A DNA stretch of 46,824 nt from a virus. Taxonomy: Duplodnaviria; Heunggongvirae; Uroviricota; Caudoviricetes. This document shows positions 10,854-46,087 of this stretch, one piece after another; the first letter of the stretch is position 1, and each line of letters begins with the position of its first letter. The notes beneath the pieces are model-generated. The model was not told the origin of the DNA and made no database searches. It worked only from the letters and a program-made list of their open reading frames with translations. The stretch is taken from the IMG/VR virus record IMGVR_UViG_2541047840_000001, one strand, 5' to 3'. The position numbers were made by a program, and so were the translations under genes.

Positions 10854-11408
10854 ATGCAATATGGTTATGCGAGGGTGTCAACTTTTGACCAGAATTTGGA
10901 ATTACAACTGGAGGCGCTCAGGAGTTCAGGATGTGACCAGATTTTTGAAGATAAAATATCCGGTGCTAAATCAAAACGACCAGGACTTGATAAGCTACTT
11001 AAGGTGTTACGGCCGGGCGATACGGTTATTGTCTGGAAGCTGGACCGAATGGGGCGTTCTCTGATTCATCTTGTTGATTTACTTAACCATTTTTTATCAA
11101 ACAACATTGAGTTTATTTCGATTACGGAAGGGATAAAAATTAGCACTTCAATTGGCCGCTTTGCCTACACGATGCTGAGTGCAGTCGCAGAGATGGAGCG
11201 GGAAAATATGATTGAAAGAACGCGTGCAGGATTGGCGGTGGCAAGGGCTAACGGCAGGATAGGAGGACGCCGCTCAAAATTGGCACCAGAGCAATGGGAA
11301 CAGATCGGAAGGCTTATTGCGAATGGTGTTTCACGTAAGCGGATAGCGATTATCTTCGATGTTACCTTATCCACGCTTTACCGCAGGTTTCCGGCTGGGA
11401 ATCATTGA
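10854..11408 (+). CDS. Serine recombinase, DNA invertase (Gin/Hin/Cin/Pin family)
   Basis: 184 aa; N-terminal YARVSTxxQ catalytic-serine motif and C-terminal HTH; sits next to a gix-like site. Confidence 0.9.
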   Translation: MQYGYARVSTFDQNLELQLEALRSSGCDQIFEDKISGAKSKRPGLDKLLKVLRPGDTVIVWKLDRMGRSLIHLVDLLNHFLSNNIEFISITEGIKISTSIGRFAYTMLSAVAEMERENMIERTRAGLAVARANGRIGGRRSKLAPEQWEQIGRLIANGVSRKRIAIIFDVTLSTLYRRFPAGNH

Positions 11409-11721: not shown

Positions 11722-12570
11722 ATGGATAGACCAATGCCGTCTCTACGTTCAGCTTACGTTTGTAATTTGTCGCCGGAGTTCCAGCCTCCAAAGCACCATA
11801 CGCACAAGCTGCCGCTAGTGTTATCTGATGCTTTACAGCGCATTAATGGTCGTGATCTTACGTGTGAGGTTGCGTTCTACGTTAATCAGCCGTCAGAGCG
11901 GAAGCGCCGGATAAACGAGCATCGTCGTCGGGCGATTAATGCTGTGATTGCTGCGATTTTGCACCATGTAAACATCATTTCTAAGCGGGTTCTGGCCAGT
12001 GCTGAGGCGTTGGCTGATTTTTGCGGCCTGTCTACCGTATCCGAAGCTGGGAACAAGTCTATAACACGCTGTACAAGGGCGTTGTCGCAACTGAAAGCGT
12101 TAGGTTTTATTGATTATGAACGTCGCTGGGATCGGGTGAATAAACAGTATTGGCCAGCGAAAATAGAGATTCGTGATCAACTGCTGGAAACCGTTGGTAT
12201 TACTGAACAAGCATGGAGACGTGCGGTTAGCCAGAAACTTAATTACTTCAATGCGAAGAATAGCGAACGGCTTAAAAAAGCGATAACGGAGGCTGATTAT
12301 AAGCGTATTGTTATTCAGGAGCAGATGGAGAATGTATGGCGTCAGAGGAAGACAGCCAGAGAGATAAAGGCAAAACAGAAAGCAGCGGAGAGAGCTGCGC
12401 GTCTTGTTCAGGAAAAGGGAGAGGCCGAACTTCGTCATCAAATCACTAGAGAGGTTAGCCAGGAATTTGCTGATGGCATGTATCCTGGTGCTGACCTTGC
12501 ATATTTACGATCCCTCGTTGAGCAGCGTTATAACAGGTTAAGAAAGACCTGGAAATCACTCCAACATTAA
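11722..12570 (+). CDS. repA: Plasmid replication initiator RepA (IncFII RepA1-like)
   Basis: Translation contains SITRCTRALSQLKALGFIDYE, resembling IncFII RepA1 as recalled from memory; probable ATG at 11722 (track ORF begins 11590). Confidence 0.8.
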   Translation: MDRPMPSLRSAYVCNLSPEFQPPKHHTHKLPLVLSDALQRINGRDLTCEVAFYVNQPSERKRRINEHRRRAINAVIAAILHHVNIISKRVLASAEALADFCGLSTVSEAGNKSITRCTRALSQLKALGFIDYERRWDRVNKQYWPAKIEIRDQLLETVGITEQAWRRAVSQKLNYFNAKNSERLKKAITEADYKRIVIQEQMENVWRQRKTAREIKAKQKAAERAARLVQEKGEAELRHQITREVSQEFADGMYPGADLAYLRSLVEQRYNRLRKTWKSLQH

Positions 12571-12850: not shown

Positions 12851-13213
12851 TGCAGCGAGCTAAAGCTCGCGCCGGTTCGAGTCGCTACGCTCAAATATAC
12901 CTCCTCCGGCACTTGCCGGAGGCATGGAGCAGCCTGATCATCCTTTTCGAAACGGCACGTTTCGAACTATACAAAATCAATTTATATAAGGCCGAAATAA
13001 GGCCTACGGCCGGGCTTTGCAGGAGGAAGGGGCGAGCCTTATCAATAAACGTCGATAAATACGCACACAGTAGCCATCAGAACGCGATAAAACGTAAGAA
13101 ACATCATTTCCTATTAGACATAGAAAACTTGTCTTATACGCAATGTAGTAAATTTCTATTGCCACATAGGAAAAGATTTCCTACCATCGTAGATATAATA
13201 AATGGAGATGGTT

Positions 13214-13501
13214 ATGGATAAAGATACTGTTTTAAAAATGTTGAATCCGGCTTGTTTAAAAAAAGCGGATGAATGGGAATCTCCTACATGTGGAGAAGTT
13301 CGGGCAGTCATTGGCCTGACTGGAATGAGCGGCTCGCAGTTGGCCAAAAAACTAGGCTTAAAAGATAGTCGCAATGTTCGCAACTGGCAGATGTTAAAGG
13401 AGTCCACATCCAGATCCAGCATTCCGTATGCAGCCTGGGCGCTGCTGTGTTACTTCGCTGGGTTAGGGTTAATCTTCATTGATAACAAAACAGATGTTTG
13501 A
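13214..13501 (+). CDS. Small HTH DNA-binding protein (CII-like / XRE-like, tentative)
   Basis: ATG at 13214 preceded by GGAG; helix-turn-helix-like segment GMSGSQLAKKLGLKDSRNVRNWQ. Confidence 0.5.
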   Translation: MDKDTVLKMLNPACLKKADEWESPTCGEVRAVIGLTGMSGSQLAKKLGLKDSRNVRNWQMLKESTSRSSIPYAAWALLCYFAGLGLIFIDNKTDV

Positions 13502-15064: not shown

Positions 15065-15156
15065 AGCATTGCTGAAATGTCTTTTTCAAGACCTTGCCAA
15101 TAAGCTAAACAAAAATGTTTAATGCTTCGCCTAAAAAAACACCAGTTACTATTATT

Positions 15157-15258
15157 TATATAATTATAGATTTATATAAAAAGCGCTTTACAGGTGGGAA
15201 AAAATTTCCTAAGGTTATACCCGAAACCGAGCGATACCCGCCCTGGTTAAACCGGAGA
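15157..15258 (+). repeat. 102-bp regulatory module, copy A (AT-rich promoter-like box + conserved leader + GGAGA RBS)
   Basis: Identical to 24097-24198 except one mismatch (C at 15184 vs T at 24124); ends 7 nt before ATG of 15266. Confidence 0.85.
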
Positions 15259-15265
15259 TAACCCG

Positions 15266-15646
15266 ATGAGCATGATTAAAATCCGCAAAAACGCTTTCCT
15301 TAAAATTCAAACTATCCTGGCTGGTTCTGTTGGCGTGATTTGCCGTTCTTCCTCAAGCCGCATCGATGACGGCTACGATGATGAGTATCGTGTGTCCTCA
15401 TGCGATGAGGCTTTAACCTGGCTGAAGGAGAATCAGGAACGTGCCCAGGTATATCTGGAAACAGAGAACGGCAATCAGATGCTGCGTATTAGCGGTCGTT
15501 ATGGATTTGAAACTACATTCATGGCCTATTTTAATCAGGCTTACTTTGACAAGGAGTTGGCTTGGTACACTGATCGCATGAGCAAAAGCGAGCCAGCCCC
15601 GATTACACCGCCGAACAATAAACCATTTTTATTCCTCGTTAAGTAA
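15266..15646 (+). CDS. Hypothetical protein (126 aa)
   Basis: ORF with GGAGA RBS 7 nt upstream; no recognisable family. Confidence 0.55.
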   Translation: MSMIKIRKNAFLKIQTILAGSVGVICRSSSSRIDDGYDDEYRVSSCDEALTWLKENQERAQVYLETENGNQMLRISGRYGFETTFMAYFNQAYFDKELAWYTDRMSKSEPAPITPPNNKPFLFLVK

Positions 15647-15656
15647 ACACAATGCG

Positions 15657-15679
15657 CAAAGTGTCATTTTGACACTTTG
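15657..15679. promoter_or_regulatory. Perfect palindrome CAAAGTGTCA-TTT-TGACACTTTG between two genes
   Basis: 10-bp perfect arms; lies between the stop at 15646 and the next ATG at 15710. Confidence 0.4.
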
Positions 15680-15709
15680 CGAGTGTTAATATTGTGCGAG
15701 GAGGGTGCT

Positions 15710-15982
15710 ATGACGGGTTATGAATTGAAATTATGGCGTCGTGGGATGAACTGGACGCAGGAGCGAGCCGCCGAAGAATTTGGGATATCGTTGGCTACAT
15801 ATAAGCGATATGAGAAGGGGGAGCCGCCGAGGGTCATTGAGATGGCCATTCGCGTTCTGTCGTTTGACGATATGGTGAAGGATCTTTCACACCTTGATAA
15901 AGACGCGATTCTGTTAAGGCTGCAAACCCTTGTATGGGAAAAGGTTAAAGTGTCGTCAGAATTGGAACAAGGGATCAAATGA
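15710..15982 (+). CDS. HTH XRE-family-like transcriptional regulator
   Basis: ATG at 15710 after GAGGAGGG RBS; segment MNWTQERAAEEFGISLATYKRYEKG is HTH-like. Confidence 0.55.
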   Translation: MTGYELKLWRRGMNWTQERAAEEFGISLATYKRYEKGEPPRVIEMAIRVLSFDDMVKDLSHLDKDAILLRLQTLVWEKVKVSSELEQGIK

Positions 15983-16034
15983 TCCTTTACGGATCGTTTT
16001 ATGGTGGTGTAATGTAAGCGCCAGAAAGACAAAA

Positions 16035-16055
16035 ACCGCCTTGCCGGGCGGTTTT
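16035..16055. terminator. Terminator-like hairpin
   Basis: ACCGCC-TTGCCG-GGCGGT followed by TTTT; A-run on the other side. Confidence 0.5.
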
Positions 16056-16592
16056 CAGTCTGAAATTTAAATCTTGCTTGATAGGCTGGATTTAAAAAGA
16101 CACCTCTTGATTGGGGCGGCTTTCTTGCGTCTAAAGATAATCAAATCTTTTTGCGCCTGCAACCCCTTTTTTACTGGTGCCCATTTCAGACTCACGCTCG
16201 CGTCGTTGTCTTTGCCACTTCGTTGGGTTCGGTGTTTTTGGGCGAAGTGGCGCGCGGGTATGCGTACAAGGGGAAAGTGTGCTGACGCAAGCCAGGAACA
16301 GCGATCTAAACTAAGTCGAGTCTGAGAAAGGCAGGAGTGCGACAACTCGCCTGTGCTCTATGAGCAGAAGAAGGTATATCAGACGACCAATGGCATGATT
16401 GTGGGCCACAGGGCGCACACGGCGGCGAAGCATTGGAAACGATGTGGAGCTATCTGGTGGCATGAGTTCCGGTACTCGATCTCGAGCTTTTTTTGATGCT
16501 TTTGAGAAGGGGCCGGAACTCCGGTAAAGGGCACCCTGTATGGGGGGAGGGGGGGTTGTGTCTGAAGGGTGGTTATCAGTTATGGTGGAATT

Positions 16593-16781
16593 ATGATGCG
16601 TAGAAAAGCGAGTTTGCTGCAAGCTATTGGGTCCATTATTTCTTTGTTTCCGGCAGTTGATCATTTTCGTCATATGGCGACACGTTCCAGTATGGGCTTG
16701 GCGTGTGACGCTGACGCTATTCGAAAGGATTTTCAGAAAGTCTCTGGCGTTGATAAGAGAGAAAAGAGTAAGGGGCCGTAG
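16593..16781 (+). CDS. Small hypothetical protein (about 62 aa)
   Basis: ATGATG start after GGTGGA; converges on antirepressor gene and shares a hairpin at 16770-16787. Confidence 0.3.
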   Translation: MMRRKASLLQAIGSIISLFPAVDHFRHMATRSSMGLACDADAIRKDFQKVSGVDKREKSKGP

Positions 16782-16791
16782 CCCCTTGTAG

Positions 16792-17973
16792 TTATGGTCT
16801 GCTTTTCTGTGCCAGCTTATCAGCACATGTTTTTATCAGATCCTGTAGTGTCTTGGCTGGCAGGTTTGCATCCAGTACGCTGAGTATGCTGTTGTGATCA
16901 GCTTGGTCGACTACTTTGCCTGTCGGTGGTAGTAGCTTGAGCTGAGGATTCAGGTTTTCGTCAAAGCTGATAAGTGCTCTGGCGTTTCTGAGCAGATCAA
17001 GAAGTAAGGCTGATATCACATTTTCCTGAGTCATTGCTGGCAGATTTAGCGCCGCTTTGGTTTTCCCTGTTGCCTTGTCAAACTCCTTGATTAGTTCCTT
17101 CCTGTAGTTCGGTTCCGTTAATAGCCGATTATGCTCTGTTGCCGCGCGGATAATCGTTTTTTCTTGGTACAGTCGTTTAGCCAGATCACGCTCGTACTGT
17201 GTTTTTAACACGCTGCTGATAGCGTTAAAGGCTTCAATGTAGGCCAGCTTGATATCTTTCACGCTTGGACCGTCGATGCTCTCCATGAGCAAGGTAAATC
17301 CGTCTTTTGTCATGCGATAGATTGTTATTTCGCGGTCGCTTCCTTCCAACGGTCGTTGCTCTTTAAAAAAATGACGCGCCGCAGCTGTGCGAGGAATGCG
17401 TAACGCATCGATGGCCATAACGATGGAATTGTTTGTGGTGCTGAATGCCTGGGCAACATCGGCTGAGGTTGTGAGTGGCTCGTTATTGCACACCTTAATG
17501 TAAAACATCGGTTTGGCGTTGAGCGTATCGACAACCTCACGAGCATTGCTTGGCGAGACGGTAACGGTCGCGGCCGTTTGTGCGTTCTGGTTGAAATAGC
17601 AGTCTTCCAGCCGTTCGAACACATCCCACGCTTGGTTAGTTTCAAGCATTTTAGCGTGACGTGCAGCCCCGCGTTCTGTCCAGAGGATGAGGGAGCGAAC
17701 TTTCGGGGGAATTTGTAACCCTCTTAAAGATGGTTCGTTAACTACTCTCACAGGAACTCTTAAAGAGTTTTTGTTCTTCAACTCTCGTAACTCTTTACCT
17801 TCTATCCTAAAAAAGTGTTTACCTTCTATAAAACGTTCCTTGTTTCTATTGAAATTGTTTGTCAGACGTTGGCGCTCGGTTCCATACAATTGCGCCAGTA
17901 GTTCAGTAGTGATAACGGGGAGCTGGTTATGCAGGATAGGCTGTAGGGTGTTAACGGTCGGAAGCGTTTTCAT
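16792..17973 (-). CDS. Phage antirepressor-like regulatory protein (ORF6N / Rha-like domains)
   Basis: 393 aa; N-terminal segment ending FIEGKHFF and a central Rha-like segment; calls are from recalled domain patterns. Confidence 0.65.
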   Translation of the reverse strand: MKTLPTVNTLQPILHNQLPVITTELLAQLYGTERQRLTNNFNRNKERFIEGKHFFRIEGKELRELKNKNSLRVPVRVVNEPSLRGLQIPPKVRSLILWTERGAARHAKMLETNQAWDVFERLEDCYFNQNAQTAATVTVSPSNAREVVDTLNAKPMFYIKVCNNEPLTTSADVAQAFSTTNNSIVMAIDALRIPRTAAARHFFKEQRPLEGSDREITIYRMTKDGFTLLMESIDGPSVKDIKLAYIEAFNAISSVLKTQYERDLAKRLYQEKTIIRAATEHNRLLTEPNYRKELIKEFDKATGKTKAALNLPAMTQENVISALLLDLLRNARALISFDENLNPQLKLLPPTGKVVDQADHNSILSVLDANLPAKTLQDLIKTCADKLAQKSRP

Positions 17974-18161
17974 TTTGCACCTCCCATAACTACTTTGGTT
18001 ACGAGGGAGATTTTTGCGTCAGAAACAGCGTTATCGTTGCTGGCGATGCGCATAGCTTCGCGCTCGATGATTTCAGCCAGGCGGAGTTTATCGGCGTATG
18101 AGGCTTTCTTGAGAAGGATCTTTACGAGGTTGACGTAATAGTCATGGGGTAAGTTTGTCAT
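17970..18161 (-). CDS. Small protein overlapping antirepressor start (icd-like position)
   Basis: 63 aa ORF whose stop overlaps the antirepressor start codon. Confidence 0.4.
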   Translation of the reverse strand: MTNLPHDYYVNLVKILLKKASYADKLRLAEIIEREAMRIASNDNAVSDAKISLVTKVVMGGAK

Positions 18162-18917
18162 GGTGATAGTTCCCTTAAAGGTTAAGGATACTCACCACCG
18201 TCTGGTTCCAATCATTGGGTGGTGAGACGTACAGGGTTGGAACTACCGGTCACCATGGAATCCGGCGAGTCTTACGACTCCCCCGCACGCCCCACCATAA
18301 TTTGGGTGTAGCAGTGCTTTACGCATAAAAAAACCGCTAACGCGGTATGCGCCATGATGATTATCGGGGTTCCAATCCCGGTCGTAGATTTTGCTACGGC
18401 TCGGAAAGTGTCCACCAATGGCGCATTCATGTCAATACGGCGGGATTTTAACAGAGACAACCACATAGCGTGGGTTTATTGGTAGGCAGAAACAAAAAAA
18501 CCGCCCTATTGAGGACGGTTCTTTCGTGCTGATCGGATTCGCGGTCCTTTCAGCATTACGTTGTTGTATAAACAACCACGCAAGCACAAGCAGCAAGTTA
18601 ATTTTACCCAAAAGGTAATAATAGTCCACTATTATGCTTCATAAAATTGTGGTTCTTGTTGTGCCTGCAAACTCACAGATTGTGGGTAGGTTACTGATTT
18701 TGTGAAAATAAACTGGTTTTTTCGTTTAATTTATTTCCTATTACTAATCTTAAAATAATCGTAAAATACCTGTGGACCTTCCCGCCGATTCGCACCCGGG
18801 CACCGACTTTAGGGGAGGATTTCCTGTTGCCGTACATGCAAGCACAAGCAGCCGTGCTTGCTCTCGCGTTGTTTTCGTCGGTGGGGATGCCGTGAAACGG
18901 CCTGTAAGGGCCATACA

Positions 18918-19040
18918 ATGAAAAAATACTGTATGTGTATTTTTATCGTTGTTACTGGGGCTTTGTTTACGCCACATGGGGAGGGTTGGAAGATTACTGA
19001 TAACGCTCTGAATGTGACGATAAACATTAGCAGCAAGTAG
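18918..19040 (+). CDS. Candidate small hydrophobic peptide (40 aa)
   Basis: ATG 18918 with AAGG RBS inside a short hairpin; translation MKKYCMCIFIVVTGALFTPHGEGWKITDNALNVTINISSK; strong terminator immediately downstream. Confidence 0.3.
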   Translation: MKKYCMCIFIVVTGALFTPHGEGWKITDNALNVTINISSK

Positions 19041-19045
19041 CGATT

Positions 19046-19068
19046 AGGCCCCTTCGGGGGCCTTTTTT
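19046..19068 (+). terminator. Rho-independent terminator
   Basis: AGGCCCC-TTCG-GGGGCCT followed by TTTTTT. Confidence 0.65.
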
Positions 19069-19290
19069 ATGGTTGAATTTAAACGCTGGAGCGCATTAAA
19101 CCTTTCAGAACTGCTTCACGTACCCATTCTGGCCTGGTAGATAGCAGGGCAAATAAGCAACCAGCTTGCAGCCGTTTGAGGTCGGTTAGACGAGTTTTCA
19201 GTAACCGTGTATATTGTTGCTCGGACATAACAAATTCCCCTTGTTGTGTCGCGACGGCCAACAGTTGGCGCTGGAGGCCGTCACCTTCTC

Positions 19291-19539
19291 TTACTTCTGG
19301 TTGTATTGAGCCTTGAGTAACTCAAAAGATTTTGTCAGCACTTCTTTCAATGACATATCCATTGAGCTGGCGAACGTTTTGTACTCGCGTTTAAATTCAG
19401 GGTCGACGTTAAACGCCATTTGTGCCCCACCTGATTTGGTTCTGGTCGGCGTTTCAGTCGGGTCGAAAACCTGCGGTTGTTCGATTGATGGCGGTACGCC
19501 TTTGCTGTTCTTTTTCGGTGGTTTTGATGGTGCGGCCAT
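19291..19539 (-). CDS. ParG-like ribbon-helix-helix partition protein
   Basis: 82 aa, disordered N-terminus then FNVDPEFKREYKTFASSMDMSLKEVL, resembling the ParG RHH region as recalled; directly downstream of parA-like gene. Confidence 0.6.
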   Translation of the reverse strand: MAAPSKPPKKNSKGVPPSIEQPQVFDPTETPTRTKSGGAQMAFNVDPEFKREYKTFASSMDMSLKEVLTKSFELLKAQYNQK

Positions 19540-19549
19540 GTGTATCCCC

Positions 19550-19584
19550 TTTTATATAAATCTATAAAACTATAATTATATATT
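19550..19584. repeat. AT-rich dispersed motif copy (TTTTATATAAATCTATAA...TATAATTATATA)
   Basis: Shares TATAAATCTATA and TATAATTATATA cores with other copies; lies between parA stop and parG start. Confidence 0.6.
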
Positions 19585-20236
19585 ACGCGGCAGTAGTCAG
19601 AGCCTCAAGCTGATTGATAATCCCCTGGATAACATCGTCTGCCTTTTTGCGTGGCGCAACGTATGAGCACTCAATGAGGCTTAAGCCCTTATCCTGAGCT
19701 TTGCTCAGAGCTGGCTTGTGGGGAATGTACTTATCGACAACAAAGTATGGCGTATTAGCCAGGTACTCTTGGGCTTCAATATAGTCAGCTTCGTTTTCAG
19801 CCGCGCCGGAAAACACCATGCAAATTTTCTTGATTGGTACACCCTTTTTAACGATGCCGTGAGCTGTGTTAACGGTGGTTTCCAGGTCATCGGTAGAGAA
19901 TCTGGTTGGCAAAATAACCATATCCAGAAATTCAGAGAGCTTCGGTACTGATTCAGATGCGTAGGCACCGCCATCGACGATAACCAAGTCGTATACTTCT
20001 GATTCGATGATTTTCTGGACTTGTGATGGTGTGCCGCACGGCTGCGCCGCGATTGCTGGTTCGATATTGTTGGCCATTCTGCGTTGTACCCAACGCGTTA
20101 CCGTTCCGTTAAGCACATCCATATCGATCAGGCATACATTCCAGCCAGCCTTTGCATAAGCAACTGCTAAAGCACGGGCAATTGTTGATTTGGTTACGCC
20201 GCCTTTTCCGTTGAAAATACCTACAGAGATAGTCAT
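19583..20236 (-). CDS. ParA/ParF-family partition ATPase
   Basis: Deviant Walker A GKGGVTKST near N-terminus; probable start at second ATG (20236) with GGAG RBS; track ORF extends to 20251. Confidence 0.85.
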   Translation of the reverse strand: MTISVGIFNGKGGVTKSTIARALAVAYAKAGWNVCLIDMDVLNGTVTRWVQRRMANNIEPAIAAQPCGTPSQVQKIIESEVYDLVIVDGGAYASESVPKLSEFLDMVILPTRFSTDDLETTVNTAHGIVKKGVPIKKICMVFSGAAENEADYIEAQEYLANTPYFVVDKYIPHKPALSKAQDKGLSLIECSYVAPRKKADDVIQGIINQLEALTTAA

Positions 20237-20257
20237 TTGTCGAGACTCCATGTGTTT

Positions 20258-20290
20258 GATTATATAATTCTATAAATCTATATTTATAGA
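20258..20290. repeat. AT-rich dispersed motif copy upstream of parA
   Basis: GATTATATAATTCTATAAATCTATATTTATAGA. Confidence 0.6.
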
Positions 20291-20330
20291 ACGAGGTAAG
20301 CATAACCAACTTTTTGGCGGATGAAAAGCG

Positions 20331-20365
20331 TTTTATATAATTATATAAATCTATAATCATATAAG
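20331..20365. repeat. AT-rich dispersed motif copy upstream of parA
   Basis: TTTTATATAATTATATAAATCTATAATCATATAAG, followed by hairpin GCGGGC-GTTA-GCCCGC (20365-20380). Confidence 0.6.
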
Positions 20366-20386
20366 CGGGCGTTAGCCCGCTTGCAG

Positions 20387-20761
20387 TCAGAGGTCAGCTA
20401 TCGTTGATATCAGTTGATTTGCTAGCTGTCGCTGTTTACGTGAGAGGGTTAGAGCAGCTTCTGAGCGGTCGCTAAGAGGGGTGTTTTCATCGAGAATCAT
20501 GAGGCATACAGAAATAATAGCTCTGTTATATGCCATCAATGGCTGGCACAGCTTCGATACCGCTGGCACATCGTATTGTAAGGCCGTTTTGAGGCAGATT
20601 TTTTGTTCTGATGCCAGATGAAGGATAGATTCTATCCAGTCGATATCTTTCTCATTATCAATGATTTGGCATAACATACACTCAATCGCTATGTTCAACG
20701 CTTGGATTTCGATTCCAGCAGTGATCAGAGTTTCGTTTTTATTGGCTGTATGTAATTCCAT
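20387..20761 (-). CDS. Hypothetical protein encoded immediately downstream of the repressor gene
   Basis: 124 aa ORF; operator-like palindrome at 20797-20811 between it and the repressor gene. Confidence 0.5.
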   Translation of the reverse strand: MELHTANKNETLITAGIEIQALNIAIECMLCQIIDNEKDIDWIESILHLASEQKICLKTALQYDVPAVSKLCQPLMAYNRAIISVCLMILDENTPLSDRSEAALTLSRKQRQLANQLISTIADL

Positions 20762-20796
20762 GCGTAGCCTCTTTTATACTTTCACATGTTGTCAAA

Positions 20797-20811
20797 ACCA
20801 CAAAGCGTGGT
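20797..20811. promoter_or_regulatory. ACCAC-N5-GTGGT palindrome (repressor operator-like; also a terminator-like hairpin with T7 on plus strand)
   Basis: ACCACAAAGCGTGGT followed by TTTTTTT; same half-site consensus as palindromes in the cI-cro intergenic region. Confidence 0.45.
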
Positions 20812-20853
20812 TTTTTTGAGCGTAGAAATGCACGGCTTTCGCCGTGCTGTGTA

Positions 20854-21510
20854 TCATAACCAGTTGACAACACTAACTACGCGGCCCAGAACTTTATAAC
20901 GCTTAAATTCCTCGTTATTCAGATGCTTAGTGTTCATTTCAGCATCCCTTTCGGTTGACAGCATAACAGCATTGTCACCCGGTATGACTCTACAGTGCCT
21001 CAAAACAACCAGGCCATTTCTGTCTTCAAGGGCATAGATCCCCTCATGAATCTCTGTATCGTCTGTATCAATCAGGACTTGGGAGCCAGGGGATATTGTT
21101 GGTGACATTAACTCATCGTTGCTCTGGAGAACTGACAGAGACGATGGGTTGATGTTCTTGCTTCGTAGAATCTCCTGTTCTATCGCCAGCACTGGCTTTT
21201 CTCCGGCGTGCGATGCTATGTCATTTTTTATAGCTACAAGCCCAGGAATAACAGGAGCGTTAGTATTCTGGGGTGGGAACGGGTTATCTGTTAAGCACGC
21301 GATATAAGGCGCTGATGCTTTCAGGGCGTGCGCGATTTTCTTGATGGCAGGTATAGATGGTTGTCTTAATCCGGCCTCATAGTTCTGCAAGGTGCTTAAG
21401 CCTATTCCAGTGACTTGCTGGAGATCTCCGGCAGTCATGCCGGATTGTTTCCGTAGAGTCTGAATGCGCAGACCTATTTCTTTCTTGATGTTCTCGTCGT
21501 TGCTTTTCAT
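20854..21510 (-). CDS. CI-like prophage repressor (N-terminal HTH, C-terminal S24/LexA-like peptidase)
   Basis: 218 aa; N-terminal HTH-like segment; C-terminal half consistent with an S24 autoproteolytic domain; divergent from a Cro-like gene. Confidence 0.8.
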   Translation of the reverse strand: MKSNDENIKKEIGLRIQTLRKQSGMTAGDLQQVTGIGLSTLQNYEAGLRQPSIPAIKKIAHALKASAPYIACLTDNPFPPQNTNAPVIPGLVAIKNDIASHAGEKPVLAIEQEILRSKNINPSSLSVLQSNDELMSPTISPGSQVLIDTDDTEIHEGIYALEDRNGLVVLRHCRVIPGDNAVMLSTERDAEMNTKHLNNEEFKRYKVLGRVVSVVNWL

Positions 21511-21547
21511 GTCTCATCAATCGTGAATGGTGGGTTATTTATACATT

Positions 21548-21562
21548 ACCACATTTAGTGGT
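21548..21562. promoter_or_regulatory. Operator-like palindrome ACCAC-ATTTA-GTGGT
   Basis: Perfect 5-bp arms, in divergent promoter region between repressor and cro-like genes. Confidence 0.5.
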
Positions 21563-21650
21563 TTTCACATGGTAAGACGAGAGGTGGACCACAAATAGAA
21601 GGTTATTTTTTGTTTTGCCCATTGAAAAACTCACGATATGTGGTTTTAAT

Positions 21651-21665
21651 ACCACATATCGTGGT
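21651..21665. promoter_or_regulatory. Operator-like palindrome ACCAC-ATATC-GTGGT
   Basis: Perfect 5-bp arms; a related palindromic sequence CACGATATGTGG lies at 21632-21643. Confidence 0.5.
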
Positions 21666-21684
21666 TTTAACTGGAGTTCGTTAA

Positions 21685-22179
21685 ATGACCTTTCAGGAGT
21701 GGGTTGACGAAAATGGAGGCCAAATTGGTGTTGCCAGAAAGTTTGGCTTTACGTCATCACTGATTGGTGCCTGGTATCGCTTCGAGAGATTCCCTCGTGC
21801 GGATAACCTGACGCTGCTGGTGGCGTATTCGGAAGGCCGGATTAACGTCCAGCAATGGGCGGCAGATTTTGCCGAACGTCAGCGCCAGCGTAGCGATGGC
21901 ACATCGGTTCGGCAGAACAAGATCAAAGGGAATCTCCCTGTTAACTGCTTATCAAGGCTGAAAGCGGTTTTCTCTGAGTTGGGGATGCCTGCGGAGCGTT
22001 GCAATCTACGCGGTCCGCGATTCATTGCTCGCTGGAAACACTCACACGTAACCGTTTCAGAGGTTCGTGATGCGATTACCGTGCTGGAGCTTAAGAATAA
22101 AGATTCCAGCGATATCGAGCTGATTCATAAGGAGATTAGCAACGCCCGGCGTTCAGCACTTGGGAGGCTTGAGGAATGA
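21685..22179 (+). CDS. Early regulator, Cro/YdaS-like N-terminal HTH with C-terminal extension (tentative)
   Basis: 164 aa, first gene transcribed divergently from repressor; CTGGAG RBS. Confidence 0.5.
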   Translation: MTFQEWVDENGGQIGVARKFGFTSSLIGAWYRFERFPRADNLTLLVAYSEGRINVQQWAADFAERQRQRSDGTSVRQNKIKGNLPVNCLSRLKAVFSELGMPAERCNLRGPRFIARWKHSHVTVSEVRDAITVLELKNKDSSDIELIHKEISNARRSALGRLEE

Positions 22180-22691
22180 TGATTCTGGCCTTCTTTGGTG
22201 ATAATCACCAGATTCAATCGAAGGTGGTGCATTACCTTGATCAAACGATTAAAGGATTTGCTATCGATCATATTGATAACGATAGCAAACATCTATCTGT
22301 AGATCAGAAAATTGGACGTGTGCAGCGACTGGTTGCCAGCCGTAACAGACGTGACACCGTAACAGTAGTCACGGGGATAACGGAGGTCATGGAGTACCAG
22401 ATGTTGCTGCATCGTGGAGCTGTTTTCTGCGTTCTTCCTGGCATTCTGCCAGCAATTCTTGCTCGTGGTTTTGTCCCTATTGATGAGTCGTTTTTATATG
22501 TAACCCCAAGCCGTTCCCTTCTGGATACGGAGGCGAAGCGTCGCATTTATATGATGCCGGACGAGGCATTTTCTGAATGTTACCGCCGTGAAATGAGGTT
22601 GGGTAAACGAGAAGTGTCTGTTGTTCGTGATGGCAGGTTTTTAAGAAGCCGCACGGTGAAAAGCACCAGAAATGACGGGGGCCATCAATGA
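22176..22691 (+). CDS. Hypothetical early-region protein
   Basis: 171 aa ORF coupled to flanking genes. Confidence 0.5.
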   Translation: MMILAFFGDNHQIQSKVVHYLDQTIKGFAIDHIDNDSKHLSVDQKIGRVQRLVASRNRRDTVTVVTGITEVMEYQMLLHRGAVFCVLPGILPAILARGFVPIDESFLYVTPSRSLLDTEAKRRIYMMPDEAFSECYRREMRLGKREVSVVRDGRFLRSRTVKSTRNDGGHQ

Positions 22692-22921
22692 GTAGTTATG
22701 TTCGCGGTGCTGCGATGCATTGCCAGAATCCCCAATTCTGGCGCTTTCTGACCAGTAAAACAGGGAAGAACGTTTCAAACAGTTCTGAGGCCTCTGTGAT
22801 TCTGCGTGAGTTTTGCGGGATCTCATCCCGTAAAGAGCTGGCAAAGAACTACGCGGCCAGAAGCATGTATGTCCAGTTAATCAACGAGTTCAACCTCTTT
22901 ATCAATGGTAAGGGGCGCTGA
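22688..22921 (+). CDS. Hypothetical early-region protein
   Basis: 77 aa ORF, overlapping stops/starts with neighbours. Confidence 0.4.
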   Translation: MSSYVRGAAMHCQNPQFWRFLTSKTGKNVSNSSEASVILREFCGISSRKELAKNYAARSMYVQLINEFNLFINGKGR

Positions 22922-23325
22922 TGAACGGACGTACACCAACGAAGAAAGAGAAACTTTATATACAAGCGGTGCTCACTCACGTGGGTTGCATAGCTTGCAT
23001 TATTGATGGCCGTGAAATTGAGAATCCAGAGCTGTGGACGGAGCTACATCACGATCCTGATTACGGCAGCGTTGATGAGAATTGCCACTTCCATAGCTTT
23101 GGGTTGTGCGCACCACATCATCGCGGTGTTGTGCCTGGTGGTGGGCGCGTGCCTCCGCATATTGCCGTTCGTCACCCTCCCCTGAGTAATTGTGCTCGCT
23201 TTGTTGAGCGTTATGGCACCGATGAATTTTTGTGTGCGCAGACGTGGGAGCTGTTGCCGCAGTCAGTTAAAGACGAAATTGGGTTTGATCTTAGTCTTGG
23301 TGAAGTACCAGGGGATACCAAATGA
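22921..23325 (+). CDS. Cys/His-rich putative HNH-type nuclease (Ref-like, tentative)
   Basis: 134 aa with CIAC and HH...CHFH...HH motifs suggesting a zinc-binding HNH-like fold. Confidence 0.45.
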   Translation: MNGRTPTKKEKLYIQAVLTHVGCIACIIDGREIENPELWTELHHDPDYGSVDENCHFHSFGLCAPHHRGVVPGGGRVPPHIAVRHPPLSNCARFVERYGTDEFLCAQTWELLPQSVKDEIGFDLSLGEVPGDTK

Positions 23326-23654
23326 GATATACCGGCTTTCGCAAACCAGCGACCAGGAAAAGCAAATACGGCAATAAAAAAACTGTTGTCGATGATATCT
23401 CTTTTGATAGCAAAAAAGAGGCTGATTACTACTGCGAACTGAAGCTACTGAGAAAAGCTGGCCGCGTTGTGACGTTTCTTATGCAGGTGCCTTTTCATCT
23501 GCCAGGTGGTGTCGTTTATAAACTTGATTTCATGGTGTTTTATGACGATGGGACGATTGATTGTGTCGACACTAAAGGTGTGCGAACAGACGTCTACATC
23601 ATGAAGAAAAAGCAGGTAGAGGCGCTTTATCCCGTCACGATACGGGAGATCTGA
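23322..23654 (+). CDS. DUF1064-like phage protein (tentative)
   Basis: 110 aa; N-terminal KYGNKKTVVDDISFDSKKEADYY pattern recalled from DUF1064 family phage proteins. Confidence 0.55.
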   Translation: MRYTGFRKPATRKSKYGNKKTVVDDISFDSKKEADYYCELKLLRKAGRVVTFLMQVPFHLPGGVVYKLDFMVFYDDGTIDCVDTKGVRTDVYIMKKKQVEALYPVTIREI

Positions 23655-23657
23655 ACA

Positions 23658-24035
23658 GTGAGACGCGATCTGGATAGCTTGTTTGAGCTATGGGCGCTGT
23701 GGGTGCGCAATGGCTGCAACGCCCGTAGCGGTTTCGCGTCGATGTTAGAAATGATGATGGTTACGCGCTGCCAGTTTACCGGAGGGGGCGGCGCACCAAA
23801 TGACTCACTGGAAACCAGTATCGAGGGAGCGGTGACGGCCCTCACGGTAGTTGATGAGACTGCGGCGCTGGTTGTCCGAATTGAATACGGGGCGTGGGAG
23901 ATTCGGGGCCTCGACATAAATGCACCGCATATTGATAAAGCCCACGCCCTTTCTCTTAGTCTCAGACAGTATCGCCGGAAGCTGGCAAAAGCCAGGGCGT
24001 ATGTTGTCGACTATTTGAAAAAGCGAAGAGAGTAA
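23658..24035 (+). CDS. Putative late-gene antiterminator (Q-like, tentative)
   Basis: 125 aa, last gene of early region immediately before the duplicated module and late-region genes; weak resemblance to small Q-family proteins. Confidence 0.4.
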   Translation: MRRDLDSLFELWALWVRNGCNARSGFASMLEMMMVTRCQFTGGGGAPNDSLETSIEGAVTALTVVDETAALVVRIEYGAWEIRGLDINAPHIDKAHALSLSLRQYRRKLAKARAYVVDYLKKRRE

Positions 24036-24096
24036 AAGTGTCATTTTGAGCTGTTTTGATGGTGTGTAGATATCGGGAACATCGAAAATCTATAAA

Positions 24097-24198
24097 TATA
24101 TAATTATAGATTTATATAAAAAGTGCTTTACAGGTGGGAAAAAATTTCCTAAGGTTATACCCGAAACCGAGCGATACCCGCCCTGGTTAAACCGGAGA
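24097..24198 (+). repeat. 102-bp regulatory module, copy B
   Basis: One mismatch to 15157-15258; ends 7 nt before ATG of 24205. Confidence 0.85.
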
Positions 24199-24204
24199 AA
24201 TCTG

Positions 24205-25272
24205 ATGAATAAACAAGTAATTATTTCTGACTGGATCAACAACCCTAACAGCCTGTTAAGCACTGATACTGGCTACCTATTACGCCATGTTAATGGTCGT
24301 ATGGTCAAAAGCGATGAGCACGAAACCTTTTTCTTTGTTGAAGATGATGGGCGTATCTATGAGGATGGTTACTCTTATGAAGCCCAAACTGGTTGTATCC
24401 CTGCGGAGCTGGTGGACGTAACAGAAGATCTGCGCAAAGCATGGCTTGAACAGCAGCAGCGCGGAGATGATTACGTAAACACCTATCAGGAACGCCAGAA
24501 CGCGCGTCTTGCCCGATATATTGCTCGTGCAGAAAAAGCCAGAAAAGAAGGTGCGGTAGCGCATAAGCGAGCGCATGACCTGTTGGATGTGATCCCGTTA
24601 GGCCAGCCGATTTTAGTTGACCATTATAGCGCGAAAGGCCATCGCCGCCGTTTGTCTAAAGCTGATGCGTTATTAAGAAAAGCGTTTGTTGAATGCGAAA
24701 GTAAAGCATCACACTACGAGAGCAAAGCCGCAGGTGTTGGTCGTAATGGAATTTCGTCTGATGATCCTGATGCGCTATTTAAGTTGCTTCGTAAGCTGCA
24801 AGGCTGCATGAAGTCACACGTCAAAATGAAGGCCGCAAATAAGGCCATTCGCAAATACAAAAAAGACCAATTACAGCAGCTTTCTGCATTAATCGATCTC
24901 AGGTTTACAGAAAGCGAAGCCAAAGAGTTACTGGCCGGAGATTTCTGTGGGCGCATCGGATTCCCTTCATACGTACTGAGCAACAATAACGCCGAGATCA
25001 AACGACTACAGAGCCGTATTAAGGAGCTTGAATCGGTCAAGTCTGTAACAGGAGCACAGCGCGAAGAATACGACGACTTTTCTATGGAGATAGATCCAGA
25101 GGATAACCGCATCCTGTTTTATTTCCCTGGCAAACCAGAGGCAAACATTCGTTCGCTGCTTAAATCACGCGCCTTTAAGTGGAGTCCAACCCGTAATGCA
25201 TGGATTCGCAAAATTACTCCAAATGCCCTGGCTGATGCCCGATATCTGAAAGAATCGCTATTGAAAGCCTGA
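24205..25272 (+). CDS. DUF3560-like protein (function unknown)
   Basis: 355 aa; C-terminal ILFYFPGKP...KWSPTRNAWIRK segment recalled from the DUF3560 family. Confidence 0.55.
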   Translation: MNKQVIISDWINNPNSLLSTDTGYLLRHVNGRMVKSDEHETFFFVEDDGRIYEDGYSYEAQTGCIPAELVDVTEDLRKAWLEQQQRGDDYVNTYQERQNARLARYIARAEKARKEGAVAHKRAHDLLDVIPLGQPILVDHYSAKGHRRRLSKADALLRKAFVECESKASHYESKAAGVGRNGISSDDPDALFKLLRKLQGCMKSHVKMKAANKAIRKYKKDQLQQLSALIDLRFTESEAKELLAGDFCGRIGFPSYVLSNNNAEIKRLQSRIKELESVKSVTGAQREEYDDFSMEIDPEDNRILFYFPGKPEANIRSLLKSRAFKWSPTRNAWIRKITPNALADARYLKESLLKA

Positions 25273-25283
25273 CAGTAAGCCTA

Positions 25284-25303
25284 CGGCGGGATGTCTCCCG
25301 CCG
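25284..25303 (+). terminator. Hairpin CGGCGGG-ATGTCT-CCCGCCG after DUF3560 gene
   Basis: 7-bp GC stem followed by TA-rich tract. Confidence 0.45.
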
Positions 25304-25338
25304 TATATAGAATTATATATTTATATAAATGTATAAGG
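25304..25338. repeat. AT-rich dispersed motif copy
   Basis: TATATAGAATTATATATTTATATAAATGTATAAGG. Confidence 0.55.
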
Positions 25339-25349
25339 ACGCCTCGACA

Positions 25350-25631
25350 ATGAAACGCAAAATTATTAACCCCCAAGATGTGATTAATTTCCTGACCGAT
25401 CACCCATGTTCAAAAGTGGACGTAATCGCGGAGCACATTGGTGTGTCGCAGAACTCTATGCGTTGCAGACTGAGAAGCATGGTTGCCGAAGGACAGATAA
25501 CAACCAGGAAAATAAATGGTTGCCTGTACTACTCCGCTAAACCGGAATTGCCATTTGGCATGAACCCTAACTCCATGTTGTTTAACACCTTATTAGCCAA
25601 AGTTAAGCCGTTGAGAGGGGCTGTGGCATGA
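25350..25631 (+). CDS. Small putative DNA-binding protein
   Basis: 93 aa from ATG 25350 (track ORF starts 25329). Confidence 0.45.
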   Translation: MKRKIINPQDVINFLTDHPCSKVDVIAEHIGVSQNSMRCRLRSMVAEGQITTRKINGCLYYSAKPELPFGMNPNSMLFNTLLAKVKPLRGAVA

Positions 25632-28007: not shown

Positions 28008-28348
28008 GCTGTAGTGAGAAGCCATGCGATTACGAGCAGTATTCAGATATTCAGAGCGGATAATGAAGCACATACAACCGAAAACATGGCAGAAACTGGA
28101 CTCTATGGGAGTTAAGTTGGAGAAGATTACTCAACTTAAGCAGTGGCATATCGGCGAATATTATGGAAGTCCTGGCCGGGATGTTCGTTTGGCAAAAAGT
28201 TGAGTATTGTTTTTTTATTGATCGATTAACCACGATTTGAAGGTTTTTTTTATGAGAAAACCTTGTTTTAGGTGGTAACTGGGTGTAGTGTTTCATTTAA
28301 CGTAGTAAAACTGCGTTAAGCGATTACCGCGTAATTTGTTGCTTTATG

Positions 28349-28381
28349 AAGCCCTGCCTTTTTCGGCGGGGCTTTTTTTTT
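28349..28381 (+). terminator. Rho-independent terminator-like hairpin upstream of lysis cassette
   Basis: AGCCCTGCC-TTTTTC-GGCGGGGCT followed by TTTTTTTT. Confidence 0.5.
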
Positions 28382-28394
28382 AACGAGGATTTCA

Positions 28395-29877: not shown

Positions 29878-30001
29878 TACCGCCTGTGATTGGGTAAAGC
29901 CCATCTACCTGACTGATCACGATATCGATGTTATGGACCGCCAGACAAAGAAAGATATTCTGGCTCATAACAGGGCATGGGAAATCAACTGCCTCAAGTA
30001 A
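29792..30001 (+). CDS. o-spanin (Rz1-like lipoprotein), overlapping i-spanin in another frame
   Basis: LIASC lipobox-like sequence, Pro-rich; overlaps the 3' end of the Rz-like gene. Confidence 0.5.
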   Translation: MYSRVLTIWLMTMLIASCGSRGSVPVVVDTACDWVKPIYLTDHDIDVMDRQTKKDILAHNRAWEINCLK

Positions 30002-30034
30002 TATATATTTCTATAATTATATAAATATATAGTT
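30001..30034. repeat. AT-rich dispersed motif copy
   Basis: ATATATATTTCTATAATTATATAAATATATAGTT. Confidence 0.55.
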
Positions 30035-30170
30035 ACAACATTCTATGCGCTTTTCTCATGAGCGCACGCATCAACCATGTTTGTCTGATATGCCGCCGCG
30101 CCCAAAAATCCTGAATTTATTGGCTGGGATTTTCGTGCGCGGCGCCACACCAGACAAACAGATCAAATAT

Positions 30171-30246
30171 GGCCCCTTAGCTCAGTGGTTAGAGCAGGCG
30201 ACTCATAATCGCACGGTCATCGGTTCAAATCCGGTAGGGGCCACCA
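30171..30246 (+). tRNA. tRNA with CAU anticodon (closest to tRNA-Ile2 type; tRNA-Met not excluded)
   Basis: 7-bp acceptor stem GGCCCCT/AGGGGCC, anticodon loop CTCATAA, T-loop GGTTCAAATCC, 3' CCA encoded; 5' half matches E. coli ileX as recalled from memory. Confidence 0.8.
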
Positions 30247-30554: not shown

Positions 30555-31091
30555 ATGGAGGCAATTGCATTGTTTAATCTGATTTATGCAGATCCCCCCT
30601 GGGAATACAAAGACAAGTGTAAGGATGGGAATCGTGGCGCTGGTTTTAAGTATCCAACGATGAAAGCTGAGGAGATTGCTCGTATTCCTGTCTGGCAGCT
30701 TGCTAATCCTGAATCGTGTTTGTTGGCCATGTGGTGGGTTCCGACTCAGCCAGAAGAAGCGTTGCTGGTGGTGAAAGCATGGGGATTCAGGCTGATGACC
30801 ATGAAGGGCTTCACATGGAACAAATGTGGTAGCCGACAACCAGATAAGCTGGTGATGGGGATGGGGCATATGACTCGTGCAAACAGTGAAGATTGCTTGT
30901 TTGCAGTGAAAGGCAAACTACCGACACGTCTTGATGCGGGGATCATTCAGTCGTTTACATCGCCTCGTCTGGAGCATTCTCGGAAGCCTGATGTGGTCCG
31001 TGACAAGCTGGTAAGGCTGTTAGGTGATGTTCCTCGTATTGAGCTGTTTGCTCGCGGTGATTTACCTGATGAGCAAAGATGTTTTCGCTAG
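30555..31091 (+). CDS. MT-A70-family DNA N6-adenine methyltransferase
   Basis: DPPW catalytic motif in IYADPPWEY near N-terminus. Confidence 0.75.
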   Translation: MEAIALFNLIYADPPWEYKDKCKDGNRGAGFKYPTMKAEEIARIPVWQLANPESCLLAMWWVPTQPEEALLVVKAWGFRLMTMKGFTWNKCGSRQPDKLVMGMGHMTRANSEDCLFAVKGKLPTRLDAGIIQSFTSPRLEHSRKPDVVRDKLVRLLGDVPRIELFARGDLPDEQRCFR

Positions 31092-31220
31092 ACTAAAAGA
31101 AATTAGCAATGAGCCATTGGCTGTTATGAAGGATGTTGGTGTAGAACTTCTCAAGTCATTGGCAAAGAAGAAGTTTGGTTTATCTGATTAGTGCAGATAC
31201 CTGTTTGCTATTTATTTATA

Positions 31221-31249
31221 AAACCACCTGCGGGTGGTTTTGTTTTTTT
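31221..31249 (+). terminator. Rho-independent terminator
   Basis: AAACCACC-TGCG-GGTGGTTT followed by TGTTTTTTT. Confidence 0.6.
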
Positions 31250-31483
31250 AGCATTACAGCAGCTCTTGTGCTTACCAGGGGCTGCGATAATGCGCAAACC
31301 AAAGCTGCCTCATTAACTCCAGCTCGCTGTGGAGTTAATGCTGGTGGCTTTTTTATTACTGGAAGGTGGGCGACCGCCGTCAGTTGCGACCTGACGACAG
31401 TCATTCATACCCACAGGGTGCCGTGGATACAAACCGAGGCCCACTTGCTTGCACAAGCGAGGGGATTTTAGCGGATAAACGGC

Positions 31484-46064: not shown

Positions 46065-46087
46065 TACTAATGGCCAGCAATAAGAAC

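Follow-up and report, generated by a model that had tools for sequence, protein, structure and literature searches.

Introduction

KorC is a global repressor of klcA, kleA and kleC in the plasmid RP4 (PMC12365149) and the main global regulator in RA3 (PMC7414963), and in pOXA-48 its site lies between the −35 and −10 elements of its own promoter (PMC12365149). In RP4, klcA is co-repressed by KorA together with KorC, and expression of this doubly repressed gene is induced approximately 120–220-fold in new transconjugants (PMC7314908). KorC regulons are known from conjugative plasmids. Here, we describe a candidate KorC regulon in a tailed virus, contained in a stretch of 46,824 nucleotides (nt) from IMG/VR record IMGVR_UViG_2541047840_000001, referred to throughout as the window, in which a 102-bp module stands nearly unchanged in front of two unrelated genes. 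We consider it probable, at roughly 62%, that this module is a self-contained promoter and 5′ untranslated region (5′UTR) cassette that places unrelated accessory genes under the control of a KorC-type repressor.

The window is ~98% identical to the Yersinia phages vB_YpM_39, 41 and 44, and to the same degree to ~47–50-kb non-mobilizable plasmids of E. coli, E. fergusonii, E. albertii, Klebsiella and Salmonella. Annotated relatives encode RepA, a RelE/HigB toxin-antitoxin pair, ParA, a CI-like repressor and a complete myovirus head, tail and lysis set. Because RepA, ParA and the toxin-antitoxin pair occur together with myovirus genes, we regard the element as a phage-plasmid of ~47 kb.

Results

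A 102-bp module precedes unrelated genes

A sequence-only reading of the window had reported a near-perfect non-coding duplication, and both copies, read base by base, bear it out as a direct repeat of 102 nt with 99% identity and a single difference (C at 15184, T at 24124). Since none of 100 dinucleotide-preserving shuffles contained a 22-nt portion of the repeat, a chance origin is excluded. The likeness partly runs past these limits, upstream across an AT-rich array and, in some relatives, downstream to the start codon (ATGA). The copies and the genes behind them are as follows.

15157–15258, plus strand: module copy A, from the repeat search; functional unit ~15148–15268
24097–24198, plus strand: module copy B, one mismatch to copy A at 24124
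15254–15258, plus strand: Shine–Dalgarno (SD) sequence GGAGA of copy A, read from the sequence
15266–15646, plus strand: gene A, 126 amino acids (aa), phrog_8090; followed by a hairpin with a 12-bp stem at 15655–15681
24205–25272, plus strand: gene B, DUF3560 protein of 355 aa; followed by a hairpin at ~25284–25301

The assignment of gene B to DUF3560 held (Pfam, E = 7.6 × 10−31). The GGAGA said to lie 7 nt before both start codons does so in copy A (15254–15258, ATG at 15266), and stands 6 nt from the ATG in copy B (24194–24198, ATG at 24205). The ATACCCG direct repeats described within each copy are present at 15217/15234 and 24157/24174; they are lost in the Salmonella relatives, and we rejected them as protein-binding sites on that ground.

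We found the module in 65 plasmid records and in 74 complete E. coli genomes, three copies being the median, and it heads at least four unrelated open reading frames (ORFs) across these relatives. Three is the usual number in ~70 relatives from E. coli, Salmonella and Klebsiella, and the 48.5-kb plasmid of E. coli ATCC 25922 (NZ_CP009073) has three as well. Three sites recur: before gene A, before the DUF3560 gene, and directly after an MT-A70 methylase gene, where different relatives carry different small ORFs. Recombination breakpoints fall near the ATG of the module genes. The window has two copies versus the usual three, the third site being substituted by unrelated DNA with terminator-like hairpins; the methylase region at 30555–31480 has its C-terminus replaced. 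A scan of viral sequences with a 14-nt pattern gave mostly chance matches, the pattern being too short, and a scan of genome contigs with the gene A protein found no relatives.

The predicted core promoter lies downstream of the AT-rich box

The sequence-only reading had placed the promoter in the AT-rich box. A promoter is indeed predicted in the module, with its core not in the box but just downstream of it, where the array end (15179–15182) is followed by TTTACA, a 17-nt spacer and TAAGGT, a geometry that would suit σ70 and predicts a transcription start at ~15222 in copy A.

15187–15192, plus strand: predicted −35, TTTACA, copy A, read from the sequence
15210–15215, plus strand: predicted −10, TAAGGT, copy A; TATGGT in many relatives, TATTAT/TATAAT in type II relatives
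24127–24132, plus strand: predicted −35, TTTACA, copy B, read from the sequence
24150–24155, plus strand: predicted −10, TAAGGT, copy B, read from the sequence

The same layout recurs in more distant relatives (L132 and L134–L138), which were reached through homologues of a 125-aa protein encoded upstream of copy B. In those of type II, the array before the gene A orthologue is directly followed by near-consensus hexamers (TTGTCG-17-TATAAT in L138, TTGCGT-17-TATTAT in L134), and across both genomes the −35 position reads TTGCGT, TTGTCG or TTGTAA. The partition gene parA is organised likewise: a TTGnnn-like hexamer, 17–18 nt and TAnnnT occupy a G+C-rich stretch between a distal and a proximal array in all eight lineages examined, L135 having the proximal array only.

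A shared palindrome and a KorC-like protein

The spacer of the predicted promoter is filled by a 17-bp palindrome, T(G/A)GGAAA-N3-TTTCCTA, which overlaps the −10 element by 2 nt. A perfect version (TAGGAAA-AGA-TTTCCTA, 13167–13183) occurs inside the otherwise unrelated promoter of a gene for a small helix-turn-helix (HTH) protein.

15195–15211, plus strand: palindrome of copy A, TGGGAAA-AAA-TTTCCTA, predicted KorC-type operator; core GGAAAAAATTTCC
24135–24151, plus strand: the same KorC-type palindrome in copy B, predicted operator
13159–13187, plus strand: promoter of the korC-like gene, predicted hexamers TTGCCA (13159–13164) and TACCAT (13182–13187), 17 nt apart
13214–13501, plus strand: korC-like gene, 95-aa XRE-type HTH protein, KorC homologue; predicted repressor of the module promoters and of its own

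At 13167, 15195 and 24135 the register is identical, the palindrome starting 2 nt after the −35 hexamer and ending on the second nt of the −10. Allowing up to one mismatch, these are the only three sites in the window, weaker matches being at chance level; the Salmonella and ATCC 25922 relatives have four. Salmonella and Enterobacter elements keep the palindrome in front of their orthologue of the HTH gene, and in type II relatives both arms are altered together, to TAGGAC-N5-GTCCTA.

The 95-aa protein is homologous to KorC. The most distant homologue found for it (52% identity, E = 1 × 10−25) is encoded on IncP-like plasmids after klcA-klcB and before kleE, korA, incC and korB, which is the position of korC, and in one such plasmid (L140) the klcA promoter carries TAGGGCATTATGCCCTA overlapping its −10 element TATAAT. 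Many matches in a tblastn search of plasmids with the 95-aa protein are annotated korC or KorC; Pfam and NCBIfam hold no curated model for the family that could confirm the assignment. Three relatives without a korC-like gene beside repA (L132, L135 and L136) are also without TAGG-N9-CCTA sites, a joint absence that fits the KorC-operator reading. Given the shared palindrome, the homology to KorC, the parallel with the klcA operator and the published KorC systems, we take the module promoters to belong to a KorC-like regulon. Dispersed putative operators that would allow coordinated control, a KorC-family repressor encoded by the element itself and a palindrome lying in the spacer and −10 region are all found here.

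Module copies evolve in concert

Flanking coding DNA of the Salmonella relatives is 71–80% identical to that of the window, versus 86–90% for the module. An identity matrix gives 92–100% for paralogous copies of one lineage and 83–92% for orthologous copies compared between the E. coli and Salmonella lineages. Lineage-specific variants (GGTAGGAAAATATTTCCTATGGTAGTAACCAG...GATAGTCG) occur in all three Salmonella copies and in no E. coli-type copy, and minor polymorphisms (TAAGG/TATGG, GCGC/GTGC, GTGACAACC) are shuffled between loci in different isolates. As identity is higher within than between lineages and lineage-specific variants are shared among copies, the three-copy layout must be old and its copies homogenised within genomes. 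The module copies thus show concerted evolution, not recent duplication.

These data bear on whether the repeat might be a neutral remnant of recent duplication or recombination, devoid of any shared regulation. The near-identity of the two copies, the variable downstream genes with breakpoints near their ATG and the loss of the third copy from the window could all be read in that way. Such a remnant would not account for a three-copy layout common to lineages only 71–80% identical in DNA, for a module more conserved than the coding DNA around it and co-evolving within genomes, for the analogous multi-copy cassettes of type II relatives, or for the recognisable promoter, operator and SD inside the module, and we judge it highly improbable. 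Near-identity had been attributed beforehand to selection or recent duplication; selection stands, and recent duplication falls with the conservation of the three-copy layout. The broader proposal of a shared regulatory module with promoter and ribosome-binding site, bringing unrelated genes under common control, is supported. Gene conversion or recombination between copies, combined with selection for recognition by shared trans-acting factors, would keep the copies alike.

The 5′UTR and the possibility of a riboregulatory leader

Downstream of the predicted start, ~44 nt of 5′UTR are almost invariant between E. coli and Salmonella types and hold a stem-loop close to the 5′ end.

15225–15248, plus strand: 5′UTR stem-loop of copy A, AACCG.GCG-loop-CGC..UGGUU, ~3 nt from the predicted 5′ end
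24165–24188, plus strand: 5′UTR stem-loop of copy B, same shape

UTRs of type II differ greatly in sequence and have the same shape (GGCC.GRC-loop-GUC..GGCC). On a MAFFT alignment of types I and II, which sits one column off a hand alignment of the two, 54 of 54 cells are paired and three of the six pairs have changed on both sides, while slid controls collapse. A 5′-proximal stem-loop of this kind would fit mRNA stabilisation or translational tuning.

The sequence-only reading had also drawn a leader hairpin from GGAAAAAATTTCC (GGAAA/TTTCC). That element sits in the promoter spacer, which would not be transcribed, and is better identified as the KorC-type DNA operator found again at 13167–13183. 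If transcription instead started in the AT-rich box, the module would be a shared riboregulatory leader of ~85 nt, with the GGAAA/UUUCC hairpin and downstream structure serving as a small-RNA target, a put-like antiterminator or a translational switch. Conservation of the leader beyond that of the flanking genes would suit this, as would differences between lineages that all fall in predicted loops or linkers or exchange G-U for A-U, the potential of UUUCC to pair alternatively with the SD GGAGA, the C4-, IsrK- and RyfA-like RNAs encoded by the element, and the compensatory changes in the downstream stem-loop. Yet the hairpin falls exactly between conserved −35 and −10 elements, recurs as DNA in an unrelated promoter in the same register, and matches the KorC operator type. 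The fold and covariation check that had been proposed gave a divided result: the GGAAA/UUUCC hairpin has no compensatory pairs within type I (RNAalifold on the leader, zero pairs) and the whole 101-nt leader folds with a z-score of only −1.9, whereas the downstream stem-loop shows the three compensatory pairs of six between types I and II. Rfam has no match for the module or leader (15100–15300), whether the gathering threshold is applied or E is relaxed to 10, and duplex energies of the leader with the C4-, IsrK- and RyfA-like RNAs stay within the shuffle range. A possible leader peptide, an 18-codon ORF starting with GTG, was rejected, its start codon and frame being lost in Salmonella. We consider a riboregulatory leader unlikely.

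The nutL/nutR elements of lambda and putL/putR of HK022 are likewise near-identical non-coding elements at or after promoters of different units in one phage. They act as RNA on elongating polymerase; in the module, the conserved palindrome is part of the promoter spacer, and neither an Rfam match nor a put-like structure turned up.

The gene upstream of copy B

The position of copy B directly after a supposed Q-like gene had suggested a late promoter with a qut-like site.

23658–24035, plus strand: 125-aa protein with a sigma-region-4/Q21-like fold, upstream of copy B; probably not part of the module

The AlphaFold model of the 125-aa protein (predicted local distance difference test, pLDDT, 77) has a Q21-like fold, with phage 21 Q as the top Foldseek matches (E = 0.28 and above, TM ~0.5), and the protein may be an antiterminator; Pfam gave no significant match, with one alignment member at E = 0.07. 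A full-length NCBIfam match to the PA0613 family is weak and under the cutoff (E = 2.5 × 10−4); PA0613 is part of the Pseudomonas pyocin gene cluster. Sequence searches of the PDB with this protein and with an 82-aa ParG-like protein returned nothing.

In a late-promoter arrangement, the Q-like product would load onto RNA polymerase at the module, with the 8-bp-spaced repeats as binding element and the repeated −10-like hexamers as a sigma-dependent pause, and would render transcription resistant to terminators. The gene does occupy the lambdoid Q position, after Ref and DUF1064 genes, the array contains −10-like hexamers (TATAAT, TAGATT, TATAAA), and its period of 8 bp invites comparison with the binding element of Q21, which consists of two 6-bp direct repeats 8 bp apart (PMC6606751). 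Set against this are the absence of a Pfam match to a Q family beyond that one alignment member and the two or three module copies, two of them far from the Q-like gene, each leading straight into an SD and ORF with no terminator between. Moreover, in Salmonella relatives a gene of 147 aa separates copy B from the Q-like gene, the leftward parA promoter has AT arrays on either side as well, and the recognition helix of the Q-like protein is identical in relatives with different AT boxes (L134/L137 vs L138). A promoter–terminator arrangement stands instead in front of the holin gene at 28.2–28.4 kb. A late promoter at the module is therefore quite improbable, and the likely target of the Q21-like protein is this promoter–terminator region, not the module.

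The region 28201–28385 immediately precedes the holin gene (28395) and comprises a candidate conventional late promoter (TTGAGT...GATTAA) with two terminator-like hairpins behind it; part of the region (TTAACCACGATTTGAAG) is conserved in the distant relative L132 at 12520–12540. Compared with Q–qut at PR′ of lambda and phage 21, the module resembles that system in the Q21-like/sigma-R4-like fold encoded upstream of copy B and in direct repeats spaced as in the Q21 element; it differs in being multi-copy, in having no terminator after the promoter, in the further arrays at parA and in the separate late promoter–terminator region at 28.2–28.4 kb.

AT-rich arrays and the partition genes

Seven AT-rich arrays of 8-bp units (TTATAKAW) occur in the window, each co-oriented with the gene downstream; they precede gene A, a ParG-like gene, parA (two arrays), the DUF3560 gene, a MarR-like gene and a tRNA/methylase region.

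~15144–15183, plus strand: AT array of copy A, units ACTATTAT/TTATATAA/TTATAGAT/TTATATAA, then an A-tract, at 15148–15182; ends ~4 bp upstream of the −35
~24084–24124, plus strand: AT array of copy B, units ATCTATAA/ATATATAA/TTATAGAT/TTATATAA and an A-tract, at 24088–24122
19550–19586, minus strand: AT array between parA and the ParG-like gene
20259–20288, minus strand: proximal parA array, between the parA promoter and the parA SD
20330–20364, minus strand: distal parA array, upstream of the predicted parA promoter (−35 TTTTCA, 20327–20322; −10 TATGCT, 20304–20299)
25303–25337, plus strand: AT array before the MarR-like gene 25350–25631
29996–30038, plus strand: AT array upstream of the tRNA 30171–30243 and the MT-A70 methylase gene
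19583–20236, minus strand: parA, type Ib ParA-like ATPase (Pfam, PHROG)
19291–19539, minus strand: ParG-like gene, 82 aa; disordered N-terminal tail and C-terminal beta-alpha-alpha sequence pattern; candidate binder of the AT arrays

Relative to the −35 hexamer, the module arrays stand where an UP element or a regulator-binding site would be. Distant relatives have arrays at equivalent places built from lineage-specific units: GATATA/TATATC in L134 and L137, TATATA in L138, TAAATAAT in L132 and L135, and ATACATAT in L136. Two arrays flank the predicted parA promoter in seven of the eight lineages, L135 having one only.

The arrays might be dispersed operator or centromere sites for the 82-aa ParG-like protein, coupling partition to global transcription control, a proposal to which we give somewhat less than even odds. 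It would explain seven co-oriented arrays of 8-bp period, two of them around the parA promoter in nearly all lineages, and the protein combines a disordered tail with a two-helix C-terminus, as in ParG. The four lineage-specific array types also track the outward-facing residues of a predicted beta-strand in this protein, largely constant within a type; in the finest case, Arg accompanies the G-containing GATATC-type units of L134 and L137, as opposed to Gln with the TATATA-type units of L138. This co-variation is confounded by phylogeny, however, and the ribbon-helix-helix fold expected of the protein is putative, its model reaching a pLDDT of 64, too weak for a fold search, with no strand predicted in the monomer and no PDB sequence matches. 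Alternatively, the arrays may be no more than UP elements or H-NS targets, or their binder may be the Q-like, the MarR-like or a 124-aa protein. Binding by the ParG-like protein and a role as UP element could go together, since the A-tract abuts the −35.

Partition proteins and sites are tied to global transcription control in several systems, including omega of pSM19035, ParG of TP228, KorB of IncP-1 and the dispersed Sop sites of N15. Like these, the element has short-unit arrays at several promoters including that of par, a small protein encoded downstream of a type Ib ParA, and arrays that are lineage-specific; unlike them, its units are almost pure A/T (TTATAKAW), its arrays abut the −35 as UP elements do, and binding is predicted.

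A translation-initiation motif, GGAG/GGAC-N-CTCGACAA-ATG, occurs at 20234–20248 (parA), at 25335–25352 (MarR-like gene) and at ~6365–6388 in L134. In type II relatives it stands before the gene following the Q-like gene, and forms a second, shorter type of shared leader.

Genes behind the modules and other features of the element

Several arrays are immediately preceded by terminator hairpins, such hairpins follow genes B and C, and in relatives a terminator also stands before copy A. Because hairpins bound both arrays and genes in this way, each module gene is taken to be a monocistronic, moron-like unit; the content of the third site varies between relatives, as is expected of morons. DUF3560 homologues are widespread on conjugative plasmids, where some IncP/PromA-type records annotate them as ArdC or ArdC-like, and an F-like Serratia plasmid has one in its leading region next to traM. 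The likeness to phage morons thus extends to monocistronic genes, hairpins after B and C, a terminator before copy A in relatives and variable third-site cargo. Morons, autonomous promoter-ORF-terminator units of temperate phages, normally each have their own promoter, whereas several genes here share one homogenised promoter/UTR cassette that would be under an element-encoded repressor.

A 14-nt string, AAGTGTCATTTTGA, occurs exactly twice in the window, at 15659–15672, within the 12-bp-stem hairpin (15655–15681) after gene A, and at 24036–24049, ~48 nt upstream of copy B. The string might be another site that the two loci have in common, such as one for the neighbouring XRE-HTH gene 15677–15982, or a trace of recombination.

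Both ends of the window (1–2037 and ~46070–46824) lie inside a tape-measure gene, and its length is close to that of the whole replicon (46–50 kb in relatives); it is probably a complete circle opened within that gene, with an imperfect junction marked by an in-frame stop near 46768. A P1-like immI-type region within 16792–19068 comprises, on the minus strand, an isrK-like RNA (18327–18400), a C4 antisense RNA (18215–18302), a small ORF (17970–18161) and an Ant/ORF6N antirepressor gene (16792–17973); a ryfA-like RNA lies on the plus strand at 18772–19068. All three RNAs are Rfam matches scoring over the gathering threshold. The tail-fibre gene at 6369–8723 contains three tandemly spaced 93-nt repeats (6944–7336; 70–84% identical), and a Hin/Cin-type recombinase gene (10854–11408), together with tail-fibre assembly genes in opposite orientations, suggests an invertible host-range segment. 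We rejected the pSLy3 phage-plasmid group as a family name for the element, as pSLy3 belongs to the SSU5 supergroup, whose members are ~100 kb in size.

Discussion

We propose that each module is a cassette of four parts. An AT array of 8-bp units just upstream of the −35 would be UP-like and is probably a binding array for a protein of the phage-plasmid; a predicted σ70 promoter (TTTACA-17 nt-TAAGGT) follows; the palindrome T(G/A)GGAAA-N3-TTTCCTA in its spacer would serve as operator for the element's 95-aa KorC-family repressor; and a 5′UTR of ~44 nt would provide a 5′-proximal stem-loop and a strong SD. The cassettes would head monocistronic, moron-like accessory genes, namely gene A, the DUF3560 gene and, in most relatives, a third gene. 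In the established plasmid-prophage, the KorC-like protein would occupy its operators and hold all cassettes low, whereas in a newly infected, repressor-free cell they would fire together until repressor accumulates, much as KorC-controlled klcA undergoes zygotic induction in RP4. For pOXA-48, toxicity or plasmid loss is reported when korC is deleted.

Several points weigh against this picture. The transcription start is a sequence prediction, and TAAGGT agrees with the consensus at three of six positions (TATGGT at four), a score that explains why a simple promoter scan of the window gave no module promoter. Several −10-like hexamers lie within the AT array, which might serve as a further or an alternative promoter; the palindrome would then be part of the transcript. 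The left arm of E. coli-type modules, TGGGAAA, is one mismatch from a perfect palindrome, and no korC gene was recovered for the type II relatives, whose contigs are incomplete. Covariation in the 5′UTR stem-loop comes from essentially two lineages and the structure was chosen from the same sequences, so that, with few independent events, its evidence is moderate. The burst at establishment is proposed by analogy.

A more elaborate version, which we hold as tentative and rather doubtful, is a central control circuit with two repressors, comparable to KorC plus KorB of IncP though built from other components, in which the KorC-like protein on the spacer operators and the ParG-like protein on the dispersed, lineage-specific AT arrays would together gate gene-converting cassettes that burst on entry and act as docking sites for accessory or anti-defence genes.

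Phage-plasmids are common in clinical Enterobacteriaceae, and their gene regulation is almost unstudied. The arrangement described here offers a concrete, testable regulon in which a repressor of the KorC type, known from broad-host-range conjugative plasmids, would control three or four promoters in a tailed phage. Promoter/5′UTR cassettes evolving in concert might account for the way in which such elements take up new accessory genes and regulate them jointly, perhaps genes for establishment or anti-defence (e.g. DUF3560), and the AT arrays possibly link the partition system to global transcription control. For annotation, an apparent RNA hairpin in a leader is here better read as a DNA operator inside a promoter. 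In the literature searched, we did not find described whole cassettes before unrelated cargo, lineage-specific AT arrays beside cassette promoters, or concerted evolution in a KorC-using tailed phage-plasmid.

The regulon is best compared with the kil-kor regulon of IncP-1 plasmids (RK2/RP4), where KorC has its O_C operators at the klcA, kleA and kleC promoters, and with KorC of IncU RA3 and IncL pOXA-48. Common to both sides is a small HTH protein of the same family (30–52% identity), here a predicted repressor. A 17-bp palindrome of the form TAGG-N9-CCTA overlaps the −10 at several dispersed promoters, and the promoter of the repressor gene itself has an operator, as predicted here and proposed for pOXA-48 (PMC12365149). 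Targets in either case include leading-region or antirestriction-type genes. In RK2, the second regulator alongside KorC is KorA/KorB, and dual control with a second, partition-linked regulator is plausible here as well. The present host, by contrast, combines tailed phage and plasmid and is no conjugative plasmid; the half-sites differ in their inner bases (GGAAA versus GGGCA); the targets are gene A, DUF3560 and small ORFs; and an 8-bp-unit AT array stands where the KorA/KorB operators are. The whole promoter and 5′UTR, not the operator alone, is repeated near-identically and evolves in concert.

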